Shown here piece after piece: positions 21,124 through 43,592 of a stretch of 43,592 nucleotides of DNA. The stretch spans positions 1 through 43,592 of the IMG/VR virus record IMGVR_UViG_3300005573_000020; one strand, 5' to 3'. How positions within the stretch are numbered: the stretch's first letter is position 1; every line of letters begins with the position of its first letter. Origin of the DNA: a virus. The notes beneath the pieces are model-generated. The model did no database searches. It saw only the letters and a list, made by a program, of their open reading frames with translations, and had not been told where the DNA came from. The translations under genes and the position numbers were made by a program.

Positions 21124-21206
21124 TAATTAGCAAGCAAAATAGCACCTTGAAAATAACGTTTCGGCGTTTAAATAAATAGCGAAATTCACTCAAAAGGAGG
21201 TGGTCA

Positions 21207-21476
21207 ATGGCCATTCTAATCGCTTTGTTCTTTTTCTTCGGTTCTGCGATTGAGTGGTCTCTTGCCACTCTTCGCATATGGAATATTTCCAAAGGTCGCA
21301 CGGGTGCGGTAATGCTGATTGTTTTATGCGAGGAGATGCTTATGGTCGGAGCAGGTGCATTGACGGCCTATATCGTCATTAAGACAAATCAGCTTTATCT
21401 CTTGCCGTTTGCGGCCTTGGGAGGTTCATTTGGAGCCGGGATTTCTATGAAACTTTCCAAAAGGAGGAAAAAATGA
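21207..21476 (+). CDS. Small integral membrane protein (DUF5698/UPF0316-like N-terminal pattern)
   Basis: Strong SD (aaaaggaggtggtcaATG). GSAIEWSLATLRIWNISKGRTGAV plus three hydrophobic helices. Confidence 0.5.
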   Translation: MAILIALFFFFGSAIEWSLATLRIWNISKGRTGAVMLIVLCEEMLMVGAGALTAYIVIKTNQLYLLPFAALGGSFGAGISMKLSKRRKK

Positions 21477-21616
21477 ATGAAATTGATGAATTAAAGAGAG
21501 AAAAAGAGAAATTGGAAAAAGAAATTGAGCGGTTAAAAGAAAAATTAAGAGAATTAGAAAGCGAAGTTCGGCGGGAACGATGTCAAAAAATCATCGCCCA
21601 ATGGCAAAATTTATAA
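21473..21616 (+). CDS. Small coiled-coil protein (47 aa, below the ORF-track cutoff)
   Basis: aaggaggaaaaaATG SD and an ATGA overlap with the upstream gene. MNEIDELKREKEKLEKEIERLKEKLRELESEVRRERCQKIIAQWQNL. Confidence 0.5.
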   Translation: MNEIDELKREKEKLEKEIERLKEKLRELESEVRRERCQKIIAQWQNL

Positions 21617-21626
21617 GGAGGACAGC

Positions 21627-22403
21627 ATGTTAAAAACCATTCTTTTGCCCGATATTCATCATCCGTATCACAACAAAAAGGCATGGTTGGTGGTGCTTAA
21701 ATTTATTAAATGGTTTAAACCGCATATTGTTGTTTTGGCCGGCGATGCTTTAGAGATGAGAGCCGTTGATCACTGGAAAAAGGAAAAGGGAAATCTGAAA
21801 TACTTTGAAGGAATACGATTGCTTTCCGATTATCAGCAATTCATCAAGGACATTCTTGAACCGCTGGAAAAACTTTGTCCCAGAGCCAGAAAAATTTATA
21901 TGGGCGGAAATCACGAAGTATTTGCCGATTGTGTGATTGAGGAGAATCCCAACTTGGAAGGAATGATTGAACCAGAGAAAGCACTCAAGCTGAAAGAAAG
22001 GGGATGGGAATGGATCCCTTATTTGATTCGGGGAAGACACGGAAGCGTGCGAAAAGGCATGTTAAAAATTGGCAAGCTGACTATTGTTCACGGCGAATAC
22101 ACCAATAAGTTTCACGCTTCAAAAACGGCTGATTGTTATCTCAAATCGGTTCTTTACTGCCATACTCATGACCTTCAGGTTTTTACGAAGGTTACCGCAG
22201 AAGATCCTTCGGATTATCACACTTGCACTTCGATGGGTTGTTTGTGCGATAAATCTCCTCAGTATCTTTGGGGACGTCCAAATCGATGGGTTCACGCATT
22301 CGGGATTCTTTATACGCGTGAGAACGGACTTTTCAACATTTACACCCCGGTTATCATTAACGGAACTTTCACCTATGCTGGCAAGACCTTTTCCTACAAG
22401 TGA
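21627..22403 (+). CDS. Calcineurin-like metallophosphoesterase
   Basis: Ordered motifs LPDIHHP (DxH), LAGDAL (GD), GGNHEVF (GNHE), VHGEY, CHTHD. SD is taaggaggacagcATG. Confidence 0.85.
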   Translation: MLKTILLPDIHHPYHNKKAWLVVLKFIKWFKPHIVVLAGDALEMRAVDHWKKEKGNLKYFEGIRLLSDYQQFIKDILEPLEKLCPRARKIYMGGNHEVFADCVIEENPNLEGMIEPEKALKLKERGWEWIPYLIRGRHGSVRKGMLKIGKLTIVHGEYTNKFHASKTADCYLKSVLYCHTHDLQVFTKVTAEDPSDYHTCTSMGCLCDKSPQYLWGRPNRWVHAFGILYTRENGLFNIYTPVIINGTFTYAGKTFSYK

Positions 22404-24575: not shown

Positions 24576-24607
24576 CCGGGCCCAATCGCCTGCCCGATTG
24601 AGCCCGG
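24576..24607 (+). other. GC-rich hairpin without a U-tract
   Basis: CCGGGCCCAATCG / CGATTGAGCCCGG: 12 bp plus one mismatch, 6-nt loop, 12 nt after the stop codon. Confidence 0.6.
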
Positions 24608-24652
24608 AATAGAAATCATTAATTTAAGAGGTCGCCAGCTCTTTAAAAAAAC

Positions 24653-24904
24653 ATGAAAATTGAAAATGCCTTGAATAAGTTTCAAAAATTGGGATTTAAA
24701 GTGAATCAAAGTCAAAACGACCCCCGAGATTATTGGATTGAAGGGAAAAAAGATATTTTATCTTTTTGGACTGATGATAAAGGCGAAATCAGGGGAGGAA
24801 TTAAGGTAAGAGATAAAAATGACCATGATGACGCTATGACTGATTATTCCGCTGGGGTATGGTGTAAAAATCTTTCTCAGGCTCTTCGGTTATTTGATAA
24901 ATAG
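24653..24904 (+). CDS. Hypothetical protein (83 aa)
   Basis: ATG ORF with aaaaaacATG context. Confidence 0.55.
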   Translation: MKIENALNKFQKLGFKVNQSQNDPRDYWIEGKKDILSFWTDDKGEIRGGIKVRDKNDHDDAMTDYSAGVWCKNLSQALRLFDK

Positions 24905-24981
24905 TTTTCTTTTCTCCGCTCATTTATTCTGGCGAGTAAGTGGGCGGGATAAAGGGAATTGAGTTGTCCACAGGCAACCCC

Positions 24982-25010
24982 TTGACACGGGAATAAACGC
25001 TTGCTAATAT
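24982..25010 (+). promoter_or_regulatory. Sigma70-type promoter candidate
   Basis: TTGACA (24982-24987), 17-nt spacer, TAATAT (25005-25010). The -10 sits in the loop of the terminator hairpin below. Confidence 0.55.
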
Positions 25011-25039
25011 AAAAACATAAAATTAAGCAAGTGTTTTTT
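24997..25039 (+). terminator. Rho-independent terminator candidate
   Basis: ACGCTTGCT / AGCAAGTGT (9 bp including one G-U), 20-nt loop, then TTTTT (25035-25039). Confidence 0.5.
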
Positions 25040-25088
25040 AGTGTAGATGACCGGACAAAACCTACAATTATTTTTAATGAAAGTAGGA

Positions 25089-25121
25089 GCATTAATCCGA
25101 CAGGGTTAGTGCATTTTTTTT
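25089..25121 (+). terminator. Rho-independent terminator candidate just upstream of the methyltransferase ATG
   Basis: GCATTAA / TTAGTGC (7 bp including one U-G), 10-nt loop, then A-TTTTTTTT (25114-25121). Confidence 0.6.
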
Positions 25122-25125
25122 ATTT

Positions 25126-26553
25126 ATGACCACAAAGAAAGAAAAGTTGACATAGAAACCAGAGAAAAGAAAAGTTAAAGATCTGAAAATCTGGGACAGA
25201 AATCCAAGACAAATAACGCCGGAAGGATTTGATAAATTAAAAGAAAGAATTACCAAGCGTGGATTTCACGATGTTGTTAAGATTGACACAGATAACACAA
25301 TACTTTCCGGCAACCAAAGAAAAAGAGCATTGGAAGAATTGGGAATTGAAGAAGTTTTTGTGATGGTTCCCAATAGAGCCCTAACCGAAGAAGAAAAAGA
25401 AAAAGTAGCAATAGAATCAAACAGAGAAGACGGACAATGGGATTATGATGTGCTGGCAAGCTTTGATGAAGAACTTTTAAAAGACGTAGGATTTGGGAAT
25501 GAAGAATTGGATAATATTTTTGGATTAGAAGAAGCCGATGATTTTGATGAGAAAAAAGAATTTGAAAAAGCGGTAAAAAATCCGAGAGGAGTAAAGACCG
25601 GCGACATCTGGCAATTAGGAGAACATAAGTTAATCATCGGAGATTGCACTCAAAAAGAAAACTGGGAAAGATTATTAGGAGAAGAAAGATTTGATTTAAT
25701 GTTCACGGACCCGCCATATAAATTGGCCTACTGCAAGAAAAAAGGAAGGAAGGTGAAAACCAGCGAAGGATTTAAGTGGAAGAAAGATAGAGTATATAAT
25801 TCAGTAGGAGAAACAGATAAAGAAGGCAAACCAAAGGGATTTGGAGCGAAACAGAATGGGTTTTATGAAGGAGTAAAACAGAAAGGCGGTGTGCCGGAAT
25901 ATGATGAATGGCTATCAATAGCCAACGAATTTCAAAATCCCAAAGGAGCGAATGTGATGATTTTTGAGAATTGGAAGAACCTTCCAGAATTATGGCTGGC
26001 AATGGAAAAATATTGGAAGATGATGAACATGATTATTTGGCATCTACCAAACAGAATGCAGGGATTTTCCAGGAAATATTATTTTTTTAATAAATATGAC
26101 ATAGCTCCTCTGGCCGGAAACGGAGTGAAAAACGAGGATTATGAGGAAGAACTAGAAATTTATTTACAGGAGAAAGGACAAAAGCTTTTGGATACTTATG
26201 AGGTAAGTTTATACGGCAAGCAAGGGAAGAGTGAATGGAACAAAAAGAAAGGAACGAGATGGGCAAAAGTAACCGATCATATAACATGGACAGCAGAAAC
26301 GGAAAAATCAGGAGGCCAGAATATAATTTTTGGGACGAAACCAATTCAAATTTTAGTGCCTTATATTAAAATCCTAAGCCCGAGAAACGGAATAGTAATG
26401 GAACCGTTCTGCGGAAGCGGATCAACAATCATAGCAAGCGAAATAATGAAGCGTCGTTGTTTCGCAATAGAAATAAGCGAAACCTATGGGGAAGTGATAT
26501 TGAACAGGTTTGAAAGGTTTTCGGGTATTTCGGCGGTTAAACTAACAAAGTAA
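25126..26553 (+). CDS. ParB-like nuclease domain / DNA methyltransferase fusion, with an in-frame TAG at codon 10
   Basis: ParB motifs (LKIWDRNPRQ, SGNQRKRALEELG) lie at 25183-25340. TDPPY (motif IV) precedes FCGSGST (motif I), a beta-class N6A/N4C order. ATG at 25126 and TAG at 25153-25155. The frame is open from 25156, but the first canonical start after the TAG is the TTG at 25330. Confidence 0.8.
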
Positions 26554-26621
26554 GGGAAAAACGAAGCGCCACAGCAAGCCAGGACAAAAGATTAGGGGCT
26601 AAGTGGTAGTTTGATACGGCA

Positions 26622-27071
26622 ATGGACAAAGAACAACAAATTGCTGAAAATACAGCAGAAATACAACACAAAAAGAAAGTTCCGGGAAGGCCATTCGTGA
26701 AAGGTCAATCAGGCAATCCCAAAGGAAAACCAAAGGGAGCAATTTCACTTACTTCAGCTATTAAAAGAAAATTAAAAGAATTGCCTCCGGGAAAAGATAA
26801 AACTTATTTGGAATATATTGTTTCGCAAATACTAAGTCGAGCCGCCGTTGATGGCGATACGCAAATGATAAAAACAGTTTGGAGTTACATAGACGGAATG
26901 CCAAAACAATCCATAGATTTAAGCGGAGATTTGAGAATTAAAACATTACGACAAATCGCCGAAAACACAAAAAAAATAGCAGAAGAAAAATATGATGAAC
27001 CCTCAGGAGATGTACAAAATCAAACAGGAAGTAGCAACGAAGTTCAAGAACAGCAAGGGGGAACCGTTTAG
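26622..27071 (+). CDS. Terminase small subunit candidate (DUF5681-like)
   Basis: PGRPFVKGQSGNPKGKPKGA motif. Immediately upstream of, and overlapping, the large terminase gene. Confidence 0.55.
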   Translation: MDKEQQIAENTAEIQHKKKVPGRPFVKGQSGNPKGKPKGAISLTSAIKRKLKELPPGKDKTYLEYIVSQILSRAAVDGDTQMIKTVWSYIDGMPKQSIDLSGDLRIKTLRQIAENTKKIAEEKYDEPSGDVQNQTGSSNEVQEQQGGTV

Positions 27072-28461
27072 ATTAACCGATGGGCAAGCAGAATTATTTG
27101 CTCTGATTTTTAAAAAGAAATATCCGAGAAATCACATTGAAACACACACCCGTTATGGAAAATCAGACGTAATCTCAATGGCGGTATTGGACAGAGTAAA
27201 TACTTATCCGGAGAAATGGGCAATCGTGGCCGGCAACAAAGAAAAGGCGGGAATCATAATGAGCTACGCAATCGGCCACATCTTTGATAACGAATTTTTT
27301 AGGCAACAATTCATAATTGAAAAAGGCGAAAGCGAAGAAAACATCCGGAGATACAGAAACAAAAGCAGGATAAACTTTGACTTGGGAGATGGAAGAATGG
27401 GCGAGATATTTATTACAACCGCAGAAGGAGCAATGGGATTCGGCGCCCCAAATGTAATCGAGGATGAAAGTGCATTGATTGGCGCAAAAGACCACGCATT
27501 GGTAATGAGAATGCTCGGAGACCAGCCGAAAAACTTTCTGGTGAAAGTGGGAAATCCATGGGAGAGCGAACACTTTGATAAATCAAGAGAAGATCCGGCA
27601 TATCACAAGCTCATAATCGATTACCGGCAAGGAATTCGGGAAGGAAGATTGACGCCGGCATACGTAGACGAAATGAGAAAACAGCCATTCTTTGATGTGC
27701 TTTACGAATGCAAAAGAGCAAGCTCAACAACAATGGATGAGAAAGCATGGATACCATTATTTACCCGTGAAGAAATTGAAAGGGCAATGATCGACCACGC
27801 AGAAGGATTTGGAATTAATAAGTTAGGAGTAGACGTAGCGGGTGGAGGCAGAGCATTCAGCACCATCGTGCAAAGATACAGCAATGTGGCAGTCAAACGC
27901 CACAAATCTAAAGATCCGGACACCATGAACTTGGCCGAGAAAGTAATGACCATGGCCAAAGACGAAAGCCGAGACCGAAAATACAAAATAAGACCAAATG
28001 ATATTTTTGTAGATAGCGTGGGACTGGGCAAAGGAGTTTACGATATTTTAAACAGAAATATGCCCGGAGTTTACGGAGTGAATGGCGGGGAAAAGCCAAC
28101 CACAAAAGAAAATGAATCAAGATTTGTCAATCAGCGGGCCGAATTTTATTGGGCTTTAAAAATGTGGATTTCAAATGGCGGAAAACTTTTAAAAGATGAT
28201 GATTGGTTTGAACTTTTAAGAATTAAATATCGCACCAAACTGGAGGGCACAAGAGGAAAAATGATTATTATATCCAAAGAGGAGATGGCCCGCGAAGGAA
28301 TAGATAGTCCGGATGTTGCAGATGCCCTAATGATGACATTTAGAACCGACGATATTCCGCCAATGGATCAATTTCATCAAGAATATTTAACATATAAAGA
28401 AGCATTAGAAGAGGGAGCGGTTCCCGGATGGGATCCGATGCACCCCTTCAAGAATTTTTAA
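26992..28461 (+). CDS. terL: Terminase large subunit
   Basis: Walker A-like THTRYGKSD, Walker B NVIEDES, and nuclease-domain motifs LGVDVAGGG, FVDSVGLGKGVYD and DSPDVADALMM. Confidence 0.9.
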   Translation: MMNPQEMYKIKQEVATKFKNSKGEPFRLTDGQAELFALIFKKKYPRNHIETHTRYGKSDVISMAVLDRVNTYPEKWAIVAGNKEKAGIIMSYAIGHIFDNEFFRQQFIIEKGESEENIRRYRNKSRINFDLGDGRMGEIFITTAEGAMGFGAPNVIEDESALIGAKDHALVMRMLGDQPKNFLVKVGNPWESEHFDKSREDPAYHKLIIDYRQGIREGRLTPAYVDEMRKQPFFDVLYECKRASSTTMDEKAWIPLFTREEIERAMIDHAEGFGINKLGVDVAGGGRAFSTIVQRYSNVAVKRHKSKDPDTMNLAEKVMTMAKDESRDRKYKIRPNDIFVDSVGLGKGVYDILNRNMPGVYGVNGGEKPTTKENESRFVNQRAEFYWALKMWISNGGKLLKDDDWFELLRIKYRTKLEGTRGKMIIISKEEMAREGIDSPDVADALMMTFRTDDIPPMDQFHQEYLTYKEALEEGAVPGWDPMHPFKNF

Positions 28462-28462
28462 T

Positions 28463-30469
28463 ATGGCAAATCCAACCGAAGAAAAAAAAGATAGCATTCT
28501 CCTTATAGAAGAAAAGGAGCAGGTTGAAGTTCCGGATTATACCCCCGAAGAAATAGAATATCTGCGAAGATTACAAAGCCGGTTAGAGGAAGCACGCAAC
28601 AAAAGAGATCAAGTCTTTGAAGAATTTGATTATCTGCCATACATTTCCTATTGGTATAGCATTGAAAGAGCGGCAAACACCACGCTTCTTCCCAAGAAAA
28701 ACAAAGGAGATTCAATATTCCAATCGGGAACTTTACGCACAAAGATGATGGCATTCCTTTCAACCTATCAGGGATTGAATTTGAAGGGAGACATTACCGC
28801 ATTTAACGAAGACGAAATAGAAATAAACAATCTCGGTCACGCCCTAGAAGACATTATCGAGAAAACCGAAGAGGTCGAGAACGATGAAGAATGGAGAATG
28901 TTAAGGCAATACGAAATGCTAAAACATGGTTATGTGTTCGTAGAAGATATCTGGGAAGAAAAATACGAGATTAGAAAAACCATAGACCGAGAGTTTATGG
29001 GCAAAAAACAGGGAGTGAAGTGGACATCCAAAAAGGTTAAATTGCCGGGAATGCCCAAAAGAACATTATTGCCCGGGCCAGCAGTTTATCTCGGCGACCT
29101 AACCCAGTATATGATTGAAGATCAGCCCTACATTTTTACGGTGGAAATTAAAGATTATTTTGAAGCCAAGAAAATCTATGGAGATTGGGAAATGTGGAAG
29201 TATGTATCAAGGGATTTGAGAAATTGGTCGGGAGCAGCGGATCAAAGAATAGTGCAAAACGCTTGGAGATTATTCGGAGACACCACGAAGAATAAATGCG
29301 AGATTATTAAGTATCAGGACAAGCCAAACCAAGAATATCAAATTTTAATCAACGGAGTTCCGATGTTGCCGATTGGCTATCCGTTTCCGTGGGGACACGG
29401 AGAATATTCGGTGGTTCAGCAGAATCTTGAACCAATCAGACACAATTTTGCATACGGGAAGTCATTCATTTTCAAAAACAAAAATGCGGTAGACATTCTG
29501 GATGAAATGATGAAACTGGCGGTATTGAAAACCCAGGGATCATTCAGACCGGCATTATTAAATATAAGCGATAGAATAGTATCAAGAGACGTATTAATGC
29601 CCGGGAACATTGTGCGGGGATTAAAGCCGGGAGAATTGGTGCCGGTATTGGATCAACAAACCCAGGGGGTAACCAATGCGGAATTCAACATGATTCAGGA
29701 GGTGATAAAGTTCATTGACAGAGGAACGGTTTCGCAGACAACTACCGGAGCAAAAGAAGAAGGAGGAAATGTGACCGCCACTCAAATCATGGAATTACAA
29801 AGACAGGCCCGAGTGATGATGGGATTAACCGACTTGGCCGCCTGTTTATTGGAAAAGAAATTGACCAGCAAACGATTGATGATTATTTTGGAAAATTGGT
29901 TTGACCCCATTGATACAAAAGTTGACGAAGCAAGAAATCTTTTAAACAACAGATACAGAATTATCAGCAGAAAGCGAAGAATTGAAGGAAAGGGACAAGG
30001 ATTAAGAATGGTTATACCCACCAAGGAATTGCCGACCTCCGAACAAATTAAAGAAATGGAGGAAAGCTTTCAAAGAAACACCGGCACGCCATTACAAATG
30101 ATAATGATTGATCCGGACGCCCTAAAAAAAGCCAAACTTACTTGGATTATAAACGTAGTCCCCAAAGAAAAGAAATCAAGCGAATATTCAAAGGTGTTGT
30201 TCGGAGCAATGATGGCCGACGCAAGAAACTTGGGATTGATTCCAAGCCAGAAGTGGCTGGAAGAAAGATTTGCCGAAGAATGGGAAGAAGATCCGAGCAA
30301 AATGTTTGCCAAAGCACCAACTCCGGGAATTCAAGGGATTCCGGGAACGACTACTCCTCCCCCGCAGGCCGTGCAGGGAGCCGTAGCAGGAAAAGAATCA
30401 AGAATAACTACGCCTCAAATTACGCTTCCGATCGGAGGACCAACCGGAACACCGAGAGAACAAATATGA
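28463..30469 (+). CDS. Portal protein (by position and size)
   Basis: 668-aa ORF starting 2 nt after terL. No motif verified by eye. Confidence 0.6.
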   Translation: MANPTEEKKDSILLIEEKEQVEVPDYTPEEIEYLRRLQSRLEEARNKRDQVFEEFDYLPYISYWYSIERAANTTLLPKKNKGDSIFQSGTLRTKMMAFLSTYQGLNLKGDITAFNEDEIEINNLGHALEDIIEKTEEVENDEEWRMLRQYEMLKHGYVFVEDIWEEKYEIRKTIDREFMGKKQGVKWTSKKVKLPGMPKRTLLPGPAVYLGDLTQYMIEDQPYIFTVEIKDYFEAKKIYGDWEMWKYVSRDLRNWSGAADQRIVQNAWRLFGDTTKNKCEIIKYQDKPNQEYQILINGVPMLPIGYPFPWGHGEYSVVQQNLEPIRHNFAYGKSFIFKNKNAVDILDEMMKLAVLKTQGSFRPALLNISDRIVSRDVLMPGNIVRGLKPGELVPVLDQQTQGVTNAEFNMIQEVIKFIDRGTVSQTTTGAKEEGGNVTATQIMELQRQARVMMGLTDLAACLLEKKLTSKRLMIILENWFDPIDTKVDEARNLLNNRYRIISRKRRIEGKGQGLRMVIPTKELPTSEQIKEMEESFQRNTGTPLQMIMIDPDALKKAKLTWIINVVPKEKKSSEYSKVLFGAMMADARNLGLIPSQKWLEERFAEEWEEDPSKMFAKAPTPGIQGIPGTTTPPPQAVQGAVAGKESRITTPQITLPIGGPTGTPREQI

Positions 30470-33254: not shown

Positions 33255-33258
33255 ATGT

Positions 33259-33330
33259 GGCGGGATGGAGAAGTAGTATCTCGGCCGGCTCATAATCGGC
33301 AGATCACAGGTGCAAATCCTGTTCCCGCAA
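33259..33330 (+). tRNA. tRNA-Met-like gene (anticodon CAT), non-canonical
   Basis: Hand-folded cloverleaf: acceptor GGCGGGA/TCCCGCA (G1 x A72 mismatch). D arm GAGA-AGTAGTA-TCTC. Anticodon arm GCCGG-CTCATAA-TCGGC. Variable loop AGATC. T arm ACAGG-TGCAAAT-CCTGT. Deviations: G at position 55, no GG in the D loop, no encoded CCA. Confidence 0.5.
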
Positions 33331-33471
33331 TCACGATCCGCGACAGTGTCAAAAGACGCGGACCCAACATTCGCAGAGAAGCGTAATCTCGTTGGAAGCA
33401 GCACCTTTAAAATAGTTATTGGTCGAATAACGAAATAAAGTTAGGCTGATAACAACTAAACAACCATACAA

Positions 33472-33899: not shown

Positions 33900-34820
33900 A
33901 TGACTGAACTAAACACAATAAGTTTAAATGATTTTGTCAAATTGGCCACCGTGATCTGGATCAAAGGAGCAACGTCGGTCAAGAACTACATGCGGGATTC
34001 GGGAATGGTTCGGGAAATGACGATTCCAGAGAATACTGGAAATACCAGAGAATTCTCCGAAATCGACACCAACGAGTATTTAAGTTATAAGGGGCAAGGC
34101 GATCAAGCCGCTCGGGGCAAGGTTCAACAGGGTTATTCCAAGACCATGACCGCCTATCGAGTAGCCGAAAACATCGGAATTACTTATGAGATGAGAACAC
34201 AAAATAAGTATCCCGAAGTTGTAAGCCAATTACTTAATGGCGGAATGAAGGGTCCGAATACCATTGATCTTGACTTGAGTTTAAGATTGTCCTTTGGTGC
34301 AAGCACAAGCTATACCGACAGAGATGGCAGAACCATTGATACAACCGTCGGCGATGGCTATCAGCTATTTTACACCGCCCACACACTCGCAGGATCTTCA
34401 ACGACCTTCCGAAACCGTTTGGCCAACAATCCTAGACTTTCAAAAGGAGCATTAGAAGCGATTGAAAGACAGGCAATCGAAAATACCTATAACCACTTAG
34501 GCGAGAAAAAGACCATCCCATTTGACATCCTTTGGACCACAGATGATCCAAATACCGTAAATACAGCACAGGAATATCTAAAATCCGTTGCAAGCCCGGA
34601 AGCTACTCATGCCGGAGTAACCAATGTTTATGCCGGAAAGTATAAACACGTGGTTCTTCCGAGAGTGGCACTGACAGCAACGGGAGCACCCGATACAACC
34701 AAGCGTTATTATTGGGGAATTGCTTCATCGCAATTAACTTCATTCATGCTTGGTATTTGGGAAGCTCCACACATGATTCCTCCAACCGAGGGATCAAATG
34801 GCGAAGATGTCCAAACCGAT
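33900..34820 (+). CDS. Major capsid protein, exon 1 (predicted; 307 codons)
   Basis: Position after the scaffold gene; the predicted spliced product is 336 aa. Coding character stops at ...GEDVQTD, after which the sequence becomes a chain of tetraloop hairpins. The 5' splice site after T34820 is supported by a P1 pairing. Confidence 0.6.
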
Positions 34821-35539
34821 AATTCTCAATTGTCGCTTTTAGGAGAAATCCTAATTGAAAAATTCCGTAAATTCAGGGAACATCTTAACTTAACAGTTAA
34901 GACAATCCTGAGCCAAGCCAGATTATATCTGGAAGGTGCAACGACCATAGACGGAACACCCTTCGGGGTGATGAGATGGCCTGAACTATGCAGTAATGCA
35001 TAGAGCAAGGTAGAAATATCCTTGCCTTACAACCCCTTATGCGTGATAATGAAAGAATATGCCAAGAAAAAAAGATTACAAAAAATATAGAGAACAAACA
35101 ATTAGATACAATAAAGAATGGGCGAAAAGAAACCCAGAAAAAGTGAAGGAATACAATAGAAAGTATCGTCAAACCGAAGCAAGAAAGAAAAGTGTAGAAA
35201 AATATGATAAATCAGAAAAAGGTAGAAAAAGGAGAAAGGAATGGTATAAAAGGACGGGAAAATATACAGAATATACGCATAAAAGAAGGGCTATAATCAA
35301 AAATCTTACAGAACATTTCACTTTGTCAGAATGGGAAGAATTGAAGAAAAAATGGAATTACAGATGTCTGGCCTGTGGCAAACAAGAGCCAGAAATAAGA
35401 TTGACCCCAGACCACATAATTCCATTAAAAGTAGGAGGTAAAAATACGATAGATAATATTCAACCTCTTTGTAGCAGATGCAATTCAAGAAAAAACATAA
35501 AGATTATTGATTATAGGTTAATTGTAAAGTAACAAATTG
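34821..35539 (+). mobile_element. Group I-like intron carrying an HNH homing-endonuclease ORF (predicted)
   Basis: P1 is CGAT(34817-20)/GTCG(34832-35) with a U-G wobble at the splice site. P10 is GATTGGGA(35540-47)/TCTCAATT(34824-31). The last intron nucleotide is G35539. Hairpins carry GAAA (twice), UUCG and GUAA loops. The HNH ORF is internal. Confidence 0.6.
35059..35532 (+). CDS. HNH homing endonuclease (intron-encoded)
   Basis: CLACGKQEPEIRLTPDHIIPLKVGGKNTIDNIQPLCSRCNSRKN is a classical HNH motif with flanking CxxC pairs. The N-terminal half is Lys/Arg-rich. Confidence 0.85.
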   Translation: MPRKKDYKKYREQTIRYNKEWAKRNPEKVKEYNRKYRQTEARKKSVEKYDKSEKGRKRRKEWYKRTGKYTEYTHKRRAIIKNLTEHFTLSEWEELKKKWNYRCLACGKQEPEIRLTPDHIIPLKVGGKNTIDNIQPLCSRCNSRKNIKIIDYRLIVK

Positions 35540-35778: not shown

Positions 35779-36774
35779 ATGTTCGAAAATCAACTTAGTA
35801 GATATGGTGCGATTGCAAAGGTTATCACGGATCTTGGACCAACCGGAAAAGTATTCTTTGCGGTAAGCAACAGTGATACAATTTACTCCGATTTCTTATA
35901 TGAATTTCCGAATGACAAAGATGGCGTACCTCGTGTTTATTCAACGATTCAAGGAGCACTTGACGCTTGCGTAGACGGTCGAGGCGATGTTGTTTTGGTT
36001 CTTCCAAGACAGGTTGACCAAACAGACACCGATCCGGGAGACTGGGCAGAAACATTGACAATGAATAAAGCAGGAGTTTCTCTTATCGGAATTTCCAATA
36101 ACAGAACCCAAGGAGGACTTCCTCAAATCAAAATGGGATCAGGCTCAACGGCACTCTTGACGGTGGCCGCTCCAGGATGCACGATTAAGAATCTTGGATT
36201 TAACGGTGCAGGTTCAACCGGAGGCGGAATACTTTTAGACGACGATGGATCAACTAAAACTGCCTGGGGAACGACGATTGAGAATTGTCATTTCAAGAAC
36301 TGCAAGGGTTCAAGTGCTACCAATGCTGCTACCGGCGGGGCAATTCAATGGGCTTCGACCGGTGGGGGTTGGCAAGTAAGGATTAAAGGATGCAGATTTT
36401 ACAAGAATGTCGGCGATATAGTATTGCTCGGCACTTCCGAATCGGTTCCGCAGGATGTTATCATAGAAGACAATATCTTTTCGGGACCCGCGGCAAGTGT
36501 TGACTGCAATCTCTATTTAGCTGGTGGTTCGGGAATGAACGGAGTAATTATCAGAAATAACGTATTCACCGCATTCCCCGCACTTTCTTCTGGAACCAAT
36601 CTTACCTTTATTGTCGCCACCGGATGTATTGGAAGTTTAACCGGCAATCACTTTGCTTCAAATGGGAAGACATTCGGAGCGGCTGGCGATGTTCTTATTC
36701 CAACCACTCTTTTGATGGCTGCAAACTATCAGGAAAAATCAACTTCTGGCAGTGGTGAAATCTTTAGAACATAA
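35779..36774 (+). CDS. Right-handed beta-helix (pectate-lyase-like) virion protein
   Basis: STIQGALDACVDGRGDVVLVLP is an entry motif typical of parallel beta-helix proteins. Repeated G-x-x-I/L-x-N rungs (IENCHFKNC, IKGCRFYKN, IEDNIFSG, IRNNVFT). Confidence 0.6.
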   Translation: MFENQLSRYGAIAKVITDLGPTGKVFFAVSNSDTIYSDFLYEFPNDKDGVPRVYSTIQGALDACVDGRGDVVLVLPRQVDQTDTDPGDWAETLTMNKAGVSLIGISNNRTQGGLPQIKMGSGSTALLTVAAPGCTIKNLGFNGAGSTGGGILLDDDGSTKTAWGTTIENCHFKNCKGSSATNAATGGAIQWASTGGGWQVRIKGCRFYKNVGDIVLLGTSESVPQDVIIEDNIFSGPAASVDCNLYLAGGSGMNGVIIRNNVFTAFPALSSGTNLTFIVATGCIGSLTGNHFASNGKTFGAAGDVLIPTTLLMAANYQEKSTSGSGEIFRT

Positions 36775-41350: not shown

Positions 41351-43480
41351 ATGAAAAACATTCTACAATTTATTAAAAATCACGGCGGATATTGGTTCGG
41401 ACACTTGCCTTATATCAGACAGGCGATTGTTGCTATTGAAGATTGGATAAATAACAAGGGCAGACCGACTTGGGCTTGGAGGCATAAACTTGCTTGGGCA
41501 ATTCACTTGGCTACTGGAAATTCTATTTTTTACCTTGATTATGTCAATGGAAACGATTCTAACGATGGTTCTACTTGGGCTTTGGCTTGGAAAACCATCA
41601 CTAGTGGTGCTACGGCAGCAAGGATTGCTCCTGGCGATATTATCAGGATTGCTAAAAGTCCAGCACCGACCTCTATTGGAAATGCCACTTGGACTAACCT
41701 GTCAAAGACGGTTAGTTTGGCTTCGGCTCAAACTGCCAATATAGATAGGTGTGAAAGCGCTTGGACTGCTTCAACTAATGTTACAGCTACTACTTCAACA
41801 ACGAGAAAAGAAGGTAGTTATTCCGCGTCCCTTGCCATTGCCGCTGCCTTTACCACTGGTAAGGTTGCTTATAAATCCTTTTCCGCATTAAATTTGTCAA
41901 GTTACCAGAAAATTAGTTTTTGGATACAAAATAGTGCGGCAATCGCTTCGGCAACCGTTTTAAAGGTGGTTCTTTGTTCTGATACGACAGGAAATACTAT
42001 TGTTGATACTTTTTGGATACCAGCCATTCCTTCAACAAGCAGGTGGTTGCCCTTGACCCTTACAAAAGATGGTGGAGGAAACTTGGGGTCATCTATTCAG
42101 TCAATCGCTGTTTACGCTAATTCTGATCCAGGAACGATAACCCTACTGTTAGATGACTTTATCGCCTGCACTACTGACGGGCTTAATCTTCAAAGTTTGA
42201 TTTCTAAAAACTCTAATGAACAAGGTGGGACAGAGGGCTGGTATGGAATACAAAGCATAAATGGGACTACTGTTTTGCTGGATAATGACACAAATGTTGC
42301 AGCTAATGCTGGTAGGGGATATTCAGGAACTACGGAAACCGTAACCACTTATAAAAGGGAAACGATTCAAACTGCTTTGGCTTCGTCTTCTACAACAGCG
42401 GTTCAAGAAGTTCAAGATAGCGGAACTTCAGGAAACAATATACAATTTCAGGGTGGATATAATACTTCTACAACAGTTCAGGACGGCGAAACATTTTTTG
42501 ACGGGTTGAACGGAAATGGTTATGGACTTTATTTAAGTGGTAAATCCTATATTACTTTCAATTATCTTAATGTTTGTCGTTATAACTATGGGGTCTACTA
42601 CTCCAGCAGCAGCAACAACACCATCACTACTCTTTCAAATGCCAATAATAATAGCTACTATGGGGTCTGCTACTACAACAGCAGCAACAATTCCATCACT
42701 ACCCTTTCAAATGCTAATAATAACAGTTATGGGGTCTCCTACTCCAACAGCAGCAACAATTCCATCACTACCCTTTCAAATGCTAATAATAACAGTTATG
42801 GGGTCTACTACTCCAGCAGCAGCAACAACACCATCACTACCCTTTCAAATGCTAATAATAACGGTTATGGGGTTTACTACTACAACAGCAACAACAATAC
42901 TATCAAATCTTTATCAACTTCGGATAATGGAGCAACGGGAATTTATAATGATAAAGGAATAAATTATCTTTTTAATGCCTTAATTGCCGAAGCAACAGAA
43001 GTTTCAGGATATGCAAGTTTTGTCAATTCAAGGATTTTCTCAAACAAGCACGACCAAACCGCAGATAATCACGCAATCTTTACAGATGGAGGGCAGGTTC
43101 ATAGCACTACGGCAGTCAGGCATACAGCTTCGGGCATTGCTTGGAGAATAGATGTAACTTCAACAGATAGAAGTTCATTATATCCATTAGGTTTCAGCAT
43201 AGCCAAAATAGCTGTGGCGGCAGATAGTCAGGTAACAGTAAAAGCGTGGTTTAGAAGAACTAATACTGGAATTACGGGCAGGTTGATTTGTAAAGGCGGT
43301 CAAATTGCTGGGGTAAATAGCGATGTTTATGCCGATATGACAGCAGCAGCGGATACTTGGGAGGAATTAACAATAACATTTACCCCAACTGAAGCAGGAG
43401 TCGTGGAAATAGAAGCACAAGCTTGGGGGGGAACTACATACTCGGTCTATGTAGATGATATGACCATAACTCAAGCATAA
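41351..43480 (+). CDS. Tailspike-like protein with a parallel beta-helix repeat array
   Basis: YLDYVNGNDSNDGS...AWKTITSGA entry motif and an array of 23-aa rungs YGVYYSSSSNNTITTLSNANNNS. Confidence 0.7.
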   Translation: MKNILQFIKNHGGYWFGHLPYIRQAIVAIEDWINNKGRPTWAWRHKLAWAIHLATGNSIFYLDYVNGNDSNDGSTWALAWKTITSGATAARIAPGDIIRIAKSPAPTSIGNATWTNLSKTVSLASAQTANIDRCESAWTASTNVTATTSTTRKEGSYSASLAIAAAFTTGKVAYKSFSALNLSSYQKISFWIQNSAAIASATVLKVVLCSDTTGNTIVDTFWIPAIPSTSRWLPLTLTKDGGGNLGSSIQSIAVYANSDPGTITLLLDDFIACTTDGLNLQSLISKNSNEQGGTEGWYGIQSINGTTVLLDNDTNVAANAGRGYSGTTETVTTYKRETIQTALASSSTTAVQEVQDSGTSGNNIQFQGGYNTSTTVQDGETFFDGLNGNGYGLYLSGKSYITFNYLNVCRYNYGVYYSSSSNNTITTLSNANNNSYYGVCYYNSSNNSITTLSNANNNSYGVSYSNSSNNSITTLSNANNNSYGVYYSSSSNNTITTLSNANNNGYGVYYYNSNNNTIKSLSTSDNGATGIYNDKGINYLFNALIAEATEVSGYASFVNSRIFSNKHDQTADNHAIFTDGGQVHSTTAVRHTASGIAWRIDVTSTDRSSLYPLGFSIAKIAVAADSQVTVKAWFRRTNTGITGRLICKGGQIAGVNSDVYADMTAAADTWEELTITFTPTEAGVVEIEAQAWGGTTYSVYVDDMTITQA
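42589..42936 (+). repeat. Tandem 69-nt (one 72-nt) coding repeats, 5 units
   Basis: Units start at 42589, 42661, 42730, 42799 and 42868. Units 1 and 4, and units 2 and 3, share long identical stretches; unit 5 is diverged. Confidence 0.9.
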
Positions 43481-43592
43481 AAACTATGGAATTATCATTC
43501 AGAAAAATTTTAAGAAAAGAGCAAGATATGGCTGGCAAATGGCGGGTCTGGGTTGAGGTTGCCGATGGCGAGGCAGTGATATTAAAGTTTCA
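43472..43592. repeat. Terminal direct repeat, copy 2
   Basis: Exact copy of 1-121. It restarts the ORF that begins at position 15. Confidence 0.95.

Follow-up and report, generated by a model that had tools for sequence, protein, structure and literature searches.

An amber codon at position 10 of a phage ParB-fold/N6-adenine DNA methyltransferase gene: probably a recent nonsense mutation

Why does a phage gene for a DNA methyltransferase carry a stop codon at position 10, when the same reading frame then stays open to the end of the enzyme? The question is raised by the genome of an uncultured metagenomic phage, analyzed here over a stretch of 43,592 bp that we refer to as the window, in which the frame reads ATG(25126) ACC ACA AAG AAA GAA AAG TTG ACA TAG(25153-25155) AAA CCA GAG and continues after the TAG for 465 open codons up to a TAA. 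Translation from ATG 25126 yields MTTKKEKLT-stop-KPEKRKVKDLKIWDRNPRQ... (also given as MTTKKEKLT-stop-KPEKRKVKDLKIWDRNPRQITPEGFDKLKERITKRGFHDVVKIDTDNTILSGNQRKRALEELG...). A reading made from the letters of this DNA alone, the sequence-only reading in the following, had described the ATG, the nine residues MTTKKEKLT, the TAG and the open frame behind it, and its coordinates proved accurate when checked against sequence and translation. It had further stated that ATG, GTG and TTG are absent between the TAG and TTG 25330 and that canonical initiation would delete the ParB core, and this holds as well: only near-cognate codons are available in that interval (CTG 25183, ATC 25189, ATA 25213, ATT 25249, ATT 25282 and ATA 25300), and the earliest canonical in-frame starts past the TAG are TTG 25330, TTG 25339, GTG 25360 and ATG 25363. 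TTG 25330 immediately follows the ParB GxxRxxA box, here GNQRKRA, and initiation at this codon yields a product without the ParB core. It is this product of 407 amino acids that constitutes the public gene call for the contig (P0001, P0121). In our judgment the TAG is probably a recent, real amber nonsense mutation (TGG>TAG) in a ParB-fold/N6-adenine DNA methyltransferase of the accessory type. The features on which the argument draws are collected in Table 1.

Table 1. Features in and around the interrupted methyltransferase gene, in positions of the window
Feature	Position	Strand	Basis
Structured intergenic leader with five predicted hairpins, a sigma-70-like promoter match (24982-25010) and two terminator-like hairpins with U-runs (~24995-25048; 25089-25112 + T8)	24905..25125	+	RNA fold, promoter/terminator matches
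Ancestral start ATG and nine-codon remnant of the true N-terminus (MTTKKEKLT)	25126..25152	+	N-termini of relatives
In-frame amber TAG, from TGG (Trp) via G>A at 25154	25153..25155	+	Sequence, homolog alignments
58 codons of the predicted ParB-fold core, lost on canonical re-initiation; NPR 25201-25209, GxxRxxA box II 25309-25329	25156..25329	+	Alignment, AF2 model, Foldseek
Earliest canonical in-frame starts after the TAG	25330..25365	+	Frame scan, database gene call
Beta-class N6/N4 DNA methyltransferase domain; DPPY 25708-25719, SAM-binding FxGxG (PFCGSGS) ~26407-26421	25693..26499	+	PF01555, PHROG 498, Foldseek
TAA, true stop of the methyltransferase gene	26551..26553	+	Translation
Packaging genes: DUF5681 protein 26622-27071 (ends in TAG), terminase large subunit 26992-28461	26622..28461	+	Pfam, PHROG

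The C-terminal two-thirds of the encoded protein are readily recognized as a beta-class N6/N4 DNA methyltransferase (PF01555, E 3.9e-16; PHROG 498, E 2.4e-66; PADLOC 'MTase_II'), in which DPPY (motif IV) precedes FxGxG (motif I). Among 41 sequences, D185, P186 and P187 of this domain are invariant and Y188, F418, G420 and G422 nearly so; in ParB box II, R55 is invariant and G52 nearly invariant (41 sequences), and nucleotide binding by this part of the protein is predicted. The N-terminal domain is less easily classified. Its match to Pfam ParB_N is sub-threshold (E 0.014; 15.9 bits versus a cut-off of 26.3), and a search of PDB sequences with the N-terminal 181 amino acids returned noise only, so that a fold search was needed for the ParB assignment. 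In an AlphaFold2 model made from 41 sequences, the N-domain reaches pLDDT values of 75-89, with residues 2-6 forming strand beta1. When this domain of the model was submitted to Foldseek, the CTP-binding domains of ParB, Noc, KorB and PadC were retrieved (E ~1e-5, prob 1.00), while the C-terminal part matched CcrM, M.BceJIV, RsrI and M1.HpyAVI. In addition, PHROG 620 'ParB-like' covers residues 2-142 (E 9e-24) and many homologs carry PF02195. It is on PHROG 620, the PF02195-bearing homologs and the Foldseek match of the model that the predicted ParB fold is based, and not on Pfam ParB_N. The ParB core motifs named in the sequence-only reading are thus borne out by the PHROG profile, the fold matches and the GxxRxxA box, while the Pfam ParB_N match stays below its threshold. 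Fusions of a ParB-CTPase fold with an N6_N4 methyltransferase are a described architecture that is enriched in phages and prophages (PMC12704722). The window's enzyme resembles them in its N-terminal ParB fold with GxxR box, in its C-terminal PF01555 domain with DPPY and in being phage-encoded beside terminase genes, and differs in that the window's copy is interrupted at codon 10 and its ParB domain falls under the Pfam threshold. The enzyme appears to be an accessory, orphan-type ParB-fold/N6-adenine DNA methyltransferase.

What do the relatives of this enzyme carry at the position of the TAG? A search of 5.8 billion clustered proteins retrieved thousands of homologs of 450-500 amino acids that cover 98-100% of the frame behind the TAG. 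When 119 homologs were aligned to the window's full frame, tryptophan was found in the TAG column in 66 of them; the remaining residues (M, L, I) belong to another N-terminal subtype, MEIVxVKI..., for which the column is not comparable. The same comparison had been proposed in the sequence-only reading, and its outcome is uniform on the level of codons, too: all 33 loci of this N-terminal subtype, viral and metagenomic, have TGG at this position, and so do the three nearest relatives (71%, 66% and 66% identity). A stop at this codon occurs in none of the 33 loci and in none of the 66 proteins. A tblastn search with the tryptophan-restored protein as the query against 148 related loci that had been fetched gave 72 alignments reaching the TAG position (58 with W, 9 with Y, 5 with other residues), again without a stop. 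Throughout these 148 loci the match is single and uninterrupted in 146; the exceptions are L070, which has an in-frame stop, and L083, in which the match is split in two. As L070 is the only one of the 148 loci with another in-frame stop, such a stop is not a feature of the family. The residue replaced in the window is an invariant tryptophan that the AF2 model places at the start or edge of strand beta1.

The relatives also inform about the origin of the nine codons before the TAG. Their N-termini read MTTKTKKLNW (L012, L013, L034) or MTTKKETKKLNW (L046), with the ATG located 4-11 codons upstream of the tryptophan. The similarity of MTTK..KKLNW to the window's MTTKKEKLT-stop identifies ATG 25126 as the ancestral start, and the nine codons are a leftover of the true N-terminus and no evolved leader peptide. 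The TAG has arisen in one step, as a TGG>TAG transition (G>A at 25154), which is shared with no relative. According to the sequence-only reading, orthologs that begin downstream and lack the ParB core would have spoken against an interrupted gene; instead, the orthologs start upstream and retain this core. Short homologs were checked for further interrupted genes. P0044 simply has a mis-called start, with an intact MTIPKW... located upstream. In P0108, encoded at locus L069, the upstream TAG is where an unrelated, PD-(D/E)XK-like gene naturally terminates; the end of this gene has taken the place of the first ~45 ParB-domain residues. P0041, encoded at L070, was left as the sole genuine second amber.

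A stop codon within a conserved frame could be a sign of genome-wide reassignment, with the phage or its host using a code 15-like table in which TAG is a sense codon, and the sequence-only reading had referred to reports of stop-codon recoding in phages. The ends of the window share an exact terminal repeat of 121 bp, which identifies it as a complete circular assembly. The single in-frame TAG itself is all that speaks for reassignment, and it is the only homology-supported in-frame stop in ~55 genes. On the other hand, TAG serves as the ordinary terminator of at least nine other genes, whose read-through extensions amount to 0-28 codons and have no homology support; in a greedy gene set, TAA terminates 32, TGA 13 and TAG 7 genes. 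Reading TAG as sense brings no meaningful gain in open reading frames, the total rising from 15102 codons with the standard code to 16118, compared to 18879 with TGA and 21482 with TAA as sense. In the complete genome, ARAGORN and Rfam found a single tRNA, tRNA-Met(CAT), and no suppressor tRNA, a search that a non-canonical tRNA could escape, and no release-factor gene was found among ~20 proteins of the window that were scanned. In recoded phages, as described, late genes hold numerous in-frame stops, suppressor tRNAs tend to be phage-encoded, and TAG is translated as Gln, or TGA as Trp (bioRxiv 10.1101/2021.08.26.457843). With such phages (among others Lak, crAss-like, Garnet, Topaz; bioRxiv 10.1101/2021.08.26.457843) the window has in common that an in-frame TAG lies near the late or packaging module. 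In theirs, however, the in-frame stops are numerous, the codon is avoided as a terminator, suppressor tRNAs or release factors are often present and TAG stands for Gln, whereas the window has one TAG, at a Trp codon, in a genome that employs TAG as a normal terminator and has no suppressor tRNA. Reassignment is therefore vanishingly improbable, and genome-wide recoding is practically excluded; the phage should not be flagged as a user of an alternative code. The case illustrates that isolated in-frame stops of phage genes are cheap to test: one looks at the residue and codon of relatives at that position and at the genome-wide use of the same stop.

Decoding of this one codon, rather than of all, is a separate matter. 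A suppressor tRNA provided by the host or a co-infecting phage, or a leaky UAG-A, could yield a low, tuned amount of full-length ParB-methyltransferase, so that the TAG would act as an attenuator or as a host-dependent switch. A regulatory gate of this sort was what the sequence-only reading had found worth pursuing. The ParB codons past the TAG show no relaxed constraint, the TAG allele is the sole one assembled, in three assemblies, the host is uncultured and the ParB domain of the homolog L070 is likewise interrupted by one in-frame TAG, all of which would fit a gate. We nevertheless consider it very unlikely, since TAG is absent at this codon in more than 90 relatives and is used as a terminator by the phage itself and by the L070 methyltransferase gene, and since the complete genome lacks a suppressor tRNA. 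The residues that amber suppressors and near-cognate read-through are known to place at the codon are Gln, Tyr, Lys, Ser or Leu and not Trp, while the residue replaced here is an invariant Trp at the start of a beta strand. Pyrrolysine is a further candidate for decoding UAG; it would call for pylTSBCD genes in the host, and Patescibacteria, the probable hosts (see below), are not known to use Pyl. Downstream of the TAG, the RNA of 25150-25290, with the stop context UAG-A, folds with z = -1.6, which is not significant, and 14 of 200 shuffled sequences fold equally well. The recoding of TAG known from phages is to Gln (bioRxiv 10.1101/2021.08.26.457843), which also counts against a gate at a Trp codon.

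The amber of L070 does not strengthen the case for a gate. It occupies another codon, which specifies Gln in relatives and would have changed by CAG>TAG, and this difference argues for two independent lesions and not for a shared device. In a large family, C:G>T:A changes have thus produced two nonsense codons independently, and that they came to notice is partly due to the fact that early stops leave a long, retrievable ORF. Programmed read-through is exemplified by the Q-beta A1 protein, made by read-through of UGA. A leaky stop in the window would likewise produce a minor amount of a longer protein. Stops of the programmed kind, however, are kept by relatives and lengthen an upstream protein that is itself functional, while the stop described here is found in one lineage and is preceded by a nine-residue remnant. 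As a specific form of the gate, UAG might be read at a low or condition-dependent rate in the natural host, probably a member of the Patescibacteria, and thereby throttle the ParB-methyltransferase at the head of the late operon, which we regard as highly improbable. If such a switch were real, the L070 amber would be a hint that phage self-methylation is recurrently switched on and off at the level of populations, and functional decoding in a host from the candidate phyla radiation would be the first hint of amber suppression regulating phage DNA modification; nothing in our data favors it. Frameshifting, transcriptional slippage, an intron and an intein were also considered as ways of bypassing the stop and were rejected without computation: the flanking ORFs are in the same frame and collinear with homologs, without a gap.

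How old is the lesion? Over the 58 codons between the TAG and TTG 25330, amino-acid identity to the three nearest relatives is 72-81%, and pN for these codons (0.12-0.15) equals pN among intact genes, with pS being saturated (0.69-0.78). The remaining 407 codons of the methyltransferase frame are open. The lack of decay in the codons following the TAG indicates that the lesion is recent, and purifying selection has acted on the ParB region over practically the entire branch. By the codon data, which fit both, the stop would be either very young or still being decoded.

A trivial explanation for such an undecayed gene would be that the majority base at position 25154 is in fact G (TGG) and that the A is a consensus or assembly error, or an allele of a sub-population. 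The identical TAG allele is present in three assemblies (ENA ERZ27247228 k141_408530, 43,573 bp; JGI 3300027863 Ga0207433_10007098, 18,939 bp; and the window contig, 43,592 bp), with 0 differences over 7.2 kb; being sequence-identical, the three contigs may sample a single population, or partly the same reads, and do not count as independent evolutionary replicates. They do stem from different pipelines or samples and agree on the base: the name of the ENA contig, k141_408530, suggests a MEGAHIT assembly with k=141, and the two JGI contigs differ in length. At normal Illumina depth, single-base substitution errors are rare in a consensus. Among the 5.8 billion clustered proteins there is no full-length TGG allele of this phage, the next match being 71% identical. 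The occurrence of the same allele in three assemblies together with the absence of a TGG allele on record makes a one-off assembly error, which the sequence-only reading had listed as an option, unlikely, and an artefact or minor variant as a whole has a very slim probability. Apart from the identical contigs, strain-level relatives with more than ~76% identity were not found in viral, metagenome and genome collections, and 24600-26700 had no blastn match among 50,697 GenBank phage records, so the phage has no annotated close relative in that set.

Internal initiation after the nine-codon ORF, at TTG 25330, GTG 25360, ATG 25363 or CTG 25183, might still rescue a ParB-less methyltransferase. 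The predicted product would be N-terminally truncated and catalytically intact, and its targeting or regulation would be changed. All of the methyltransferase domain (residues 180-448 after the TAG) lies downstream of these starts, stand-alone N6_N4 methyltransferases are common, and at L069 the methyltransferase frame is still open in a protein (P0108) that lacks the first ~45 ParB residues. Candidate starts were scored with a weight matrix for start sites that had been trained on 48 of the window's genes and discriminates only weakly among candidate internal starts: CTG 25183, situated in an A-rich context like that of true starts, reached the 98th percentile of internal decoys, but TTG 25330 and ATG 25363 only the 78th and the 46th. 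CTG is a very poor initiator in bacteria, and ATG opens nearly all genes of this genome. The canonical starts lie 175-208 nt behind the TAG, a long way for re-initiation, and the methionine encoded by ATG 25363, M70, is shared with the intact relative P0002, so that this ATG is no new adaptation. Moreover, internal initiation might be a consequence of a nonsense mutation and would not constitute an alternative origin of the TAG. All in all, internal initiation of the methyltransferase is possible but unsupported, and we judge it unlikely.

What the comparisons favor, then, is the nonsense mutation that the sequence-only reading had given as one of several options: the codon is one step away from an invariant Trp codon, TGG, the stop is lineage-specific, no further stop interrupts the 465 codons behind it and the flanking ParB codons show no decay, with pN as in intact genes. 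Following the G>A exchange at 25154, which turned the TGG of the invariant Trp-10 into TAG, ribosomes starting at ATG 25126 should terminate after nine residues. We infer that the full-length enzyme would not be made beyond a basal, unprogrammed read-through, and that the allele would effectively be a null allele; initiation at the TTG, GTG and ATG codons at 25330-25363 would give products devoid of the ParB nucleotide-binding core. The phage may tolerate this loss because the enzyme is probably an accessory, orphan-type methyltransferase at the head of the packaging operon. Two points can be raised against a nonsense mutation: a decoded TAG would also leave the ParB region undecayed, and a nonsense codon heading an operon with essential terminase genes might cause polarity; the phage nevertheless assembles as a complete genome in several samples. 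Nonsense alleles of this sort are already known. The classical amber alleles of T4 and lambda ('am') also result from a single-base change of a sense codon to UAG early in a gene that is otherwise intact, and their translation is truncated unless the host has a suppressor tRNA. The case described here differs in that the allele is natural, belongs to an uncultured metagenomic phage and lies in an apparently non-essential accessory gene, with nothing to point to conditional suppression. For the annotation, we recommend that the 407-aa call starting at TTG 25330 give way to 'ParB-fold/N6-adenine DNA methyltransferase, interrupted by an amber codon at position 10 (TGG>TAG)'.

The gene is located directly upstream of the genes for the DUF5681 protein and the terminase large subunit, and its order relative to the DUF5681 gene is kept in 48 related loci. 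Neither a strong promoter nor a strong terminator was found between the methyltransferase and the packaging genes. Upstream, the gene is preceded by the 221-nt leader listed in Table 1, the RNA of which is predicted to fold with an MFE of -75.4 kcal/mol (z = -6.1), the second terminator-like hairpin ending 5 nt before ATG 25126. Rfam assigned no credible family to the leader and gene start, the lone hit being a miRNA model with an E value of 0.69. In L007 and L010 the leader is not conserved and the genes abut. A Holliday-junction resolvase gene and small ORFs are situated upstream. Together with them, the leader may resemble the late-operon leader of lambdoid phages, a resemblance that concerns an element unconserved in the relatives.

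As to the host, a search of 185,579 species genomes with the terminase large subunit as a probe retrieved no relatives. Genomic relatives of the methyltransferase are overwhelmingly found in MAGs of Patescibacteria (candidate phyla radiation), among them Nealsonbacteria (63%), Staskawiczbacteria (61%) and many Saccharibacteria, and some reside on complete chromosomes. This distribution of the enzyme family in MAGs, a weak basis when taken by itself, suggests that the host is probably a member of the Patescibacteria. The GC contents in the comparison of the Patescibacteria relatives and the phage are similar (about 38% versus 39.7%).

Among the 148 related loci, only one other in-frame stop was found in the methyltransferase gene. 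It is a separate TAG (945–947 of locus L070, Logan ERR12814453_462030) in the ParB domain of the 64% identical homologue P0041, and the codon it occupies specifies glutamine in relatives (ADEK*VDD vs ADEKQISD). The ParB domain is altered in another way in homologue P0108 (locus L069, 1–1753), in which the 3′-terminal part of an unrelated PD-(D/E)XK-like open reading frame, lying in the same frame and with TAG as its stop codon, takes the place of the domain's first ~45 residues. The replacement yields a naturally ParB-truncated methyltransferase beside a nuclease-like gene, possibly a restriction–modification-like pairing. In a Candidatus Parcubacteria MAG (L083, 274–2433; BPJI01000005.1), the methyltransferase match falls into two pieces ~770 nt apart, covering query positions 14–167 and 169–473, which suggests an insertion, either an intron or a mobile element, inside the gene.

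A second, related phage (Ga0207433_10011146; loci L005 and L054) is present alongside the window phage in sample 3300027863. The two share 63% identity in the terminase large subunit and 59–61% in the protein encoded at 28463–30469, a putative portal for which no Pfam or PHROG match was obtained. The methyltransferase of the second phage matches that of the window at 71% in its C-terminus, while its N-terminus lies off the contig end; in principle, this enzyme could complement the amber allele (TAG at codon 10) in trans.

ParB-methyltransferase relatives in species genomes (L071–L150) stem almost exclusively from MAGs of Patescibacteria/CPR, with Nealsonbacteria, Staskawiczbacteria, Saccharibacteria and Parcubacteria among the sources; the complete chromosomes CP129476.1 and OZ246412.1 are also included. 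Because of this distribution, the window probably represents a CPR phage. Patescibacteria/CPR commonly carry introns, and the presence of a group I intron in the window would be consistent with such a host. The region 34811–35532, in which a complete intron core is followed by an HNH endonuclease gene (see table), probably represents a mobile intron that carries its homing endonuclease and splits a structural gene, perhaps a tail fibre-like one. The terminal base of the core coincides with the end of the TAG that closes the open reading frame 33900–35003.

Features in the leader, tRNA and intron regions of the window
Feature	Position	Strand	Evidence or remark
Promoter-like site, TTGACA-17-TGnTAATAT	24982–25010	+	sequence match
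Second terminator-like hairpin	25089–25112 plus T8	+	ends 5 nt before ATG 25126
tRNA-Met (CAT)	33258–33332		sole phage tRNA
Group I intron core, complete	34811–35003		Rfam RF00028, 82 bits, E 1.7e-19
HNH endonuclease ORF, 3′ of intron core	35059–35532	+	Pfam HNH E 1.5e-13, HNH_5 E 1.3e-14
Beta-helix protein, 3′ of HNH ORF	35779–36774	+	

The 221-nt intergenic leader upstream of the methyltransferase gene (24905–25125) is strongly structured according to RNA folding (MFE −75.4 kcal/mol, z = −6.1), with five hairpins, and it carries two terminator-like hairpins followed by U-runs. It resembles a late leader of the lambda pR′/tR′ type; alternatively, it is possibly a packaging site. No family in Rfam matched the leader, and neither of the two closest loci (L007 and L010) conserves it.

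An exact direct repeat of 121 bp at both termini (1–121 = 43472–43592) identifies the window as a complete phage genome, circular (or terminally redundant) and ~43.47 kb in size. All of its genes lie on the plus strand, and two ORF calls that overlap the tRNA gene (33255–33386 and 33310–33438) are spurious. Strong AAGGAGG Shine–Dalgarno sequences precede three successive genes in the region 21187–21640 (starts at 21207, 21473 and 21627), while most others, including that starting at ATG 25126, have A/T-rich upstream sequences without such a motif. The three genes may be a module of other origin or under other translational control.
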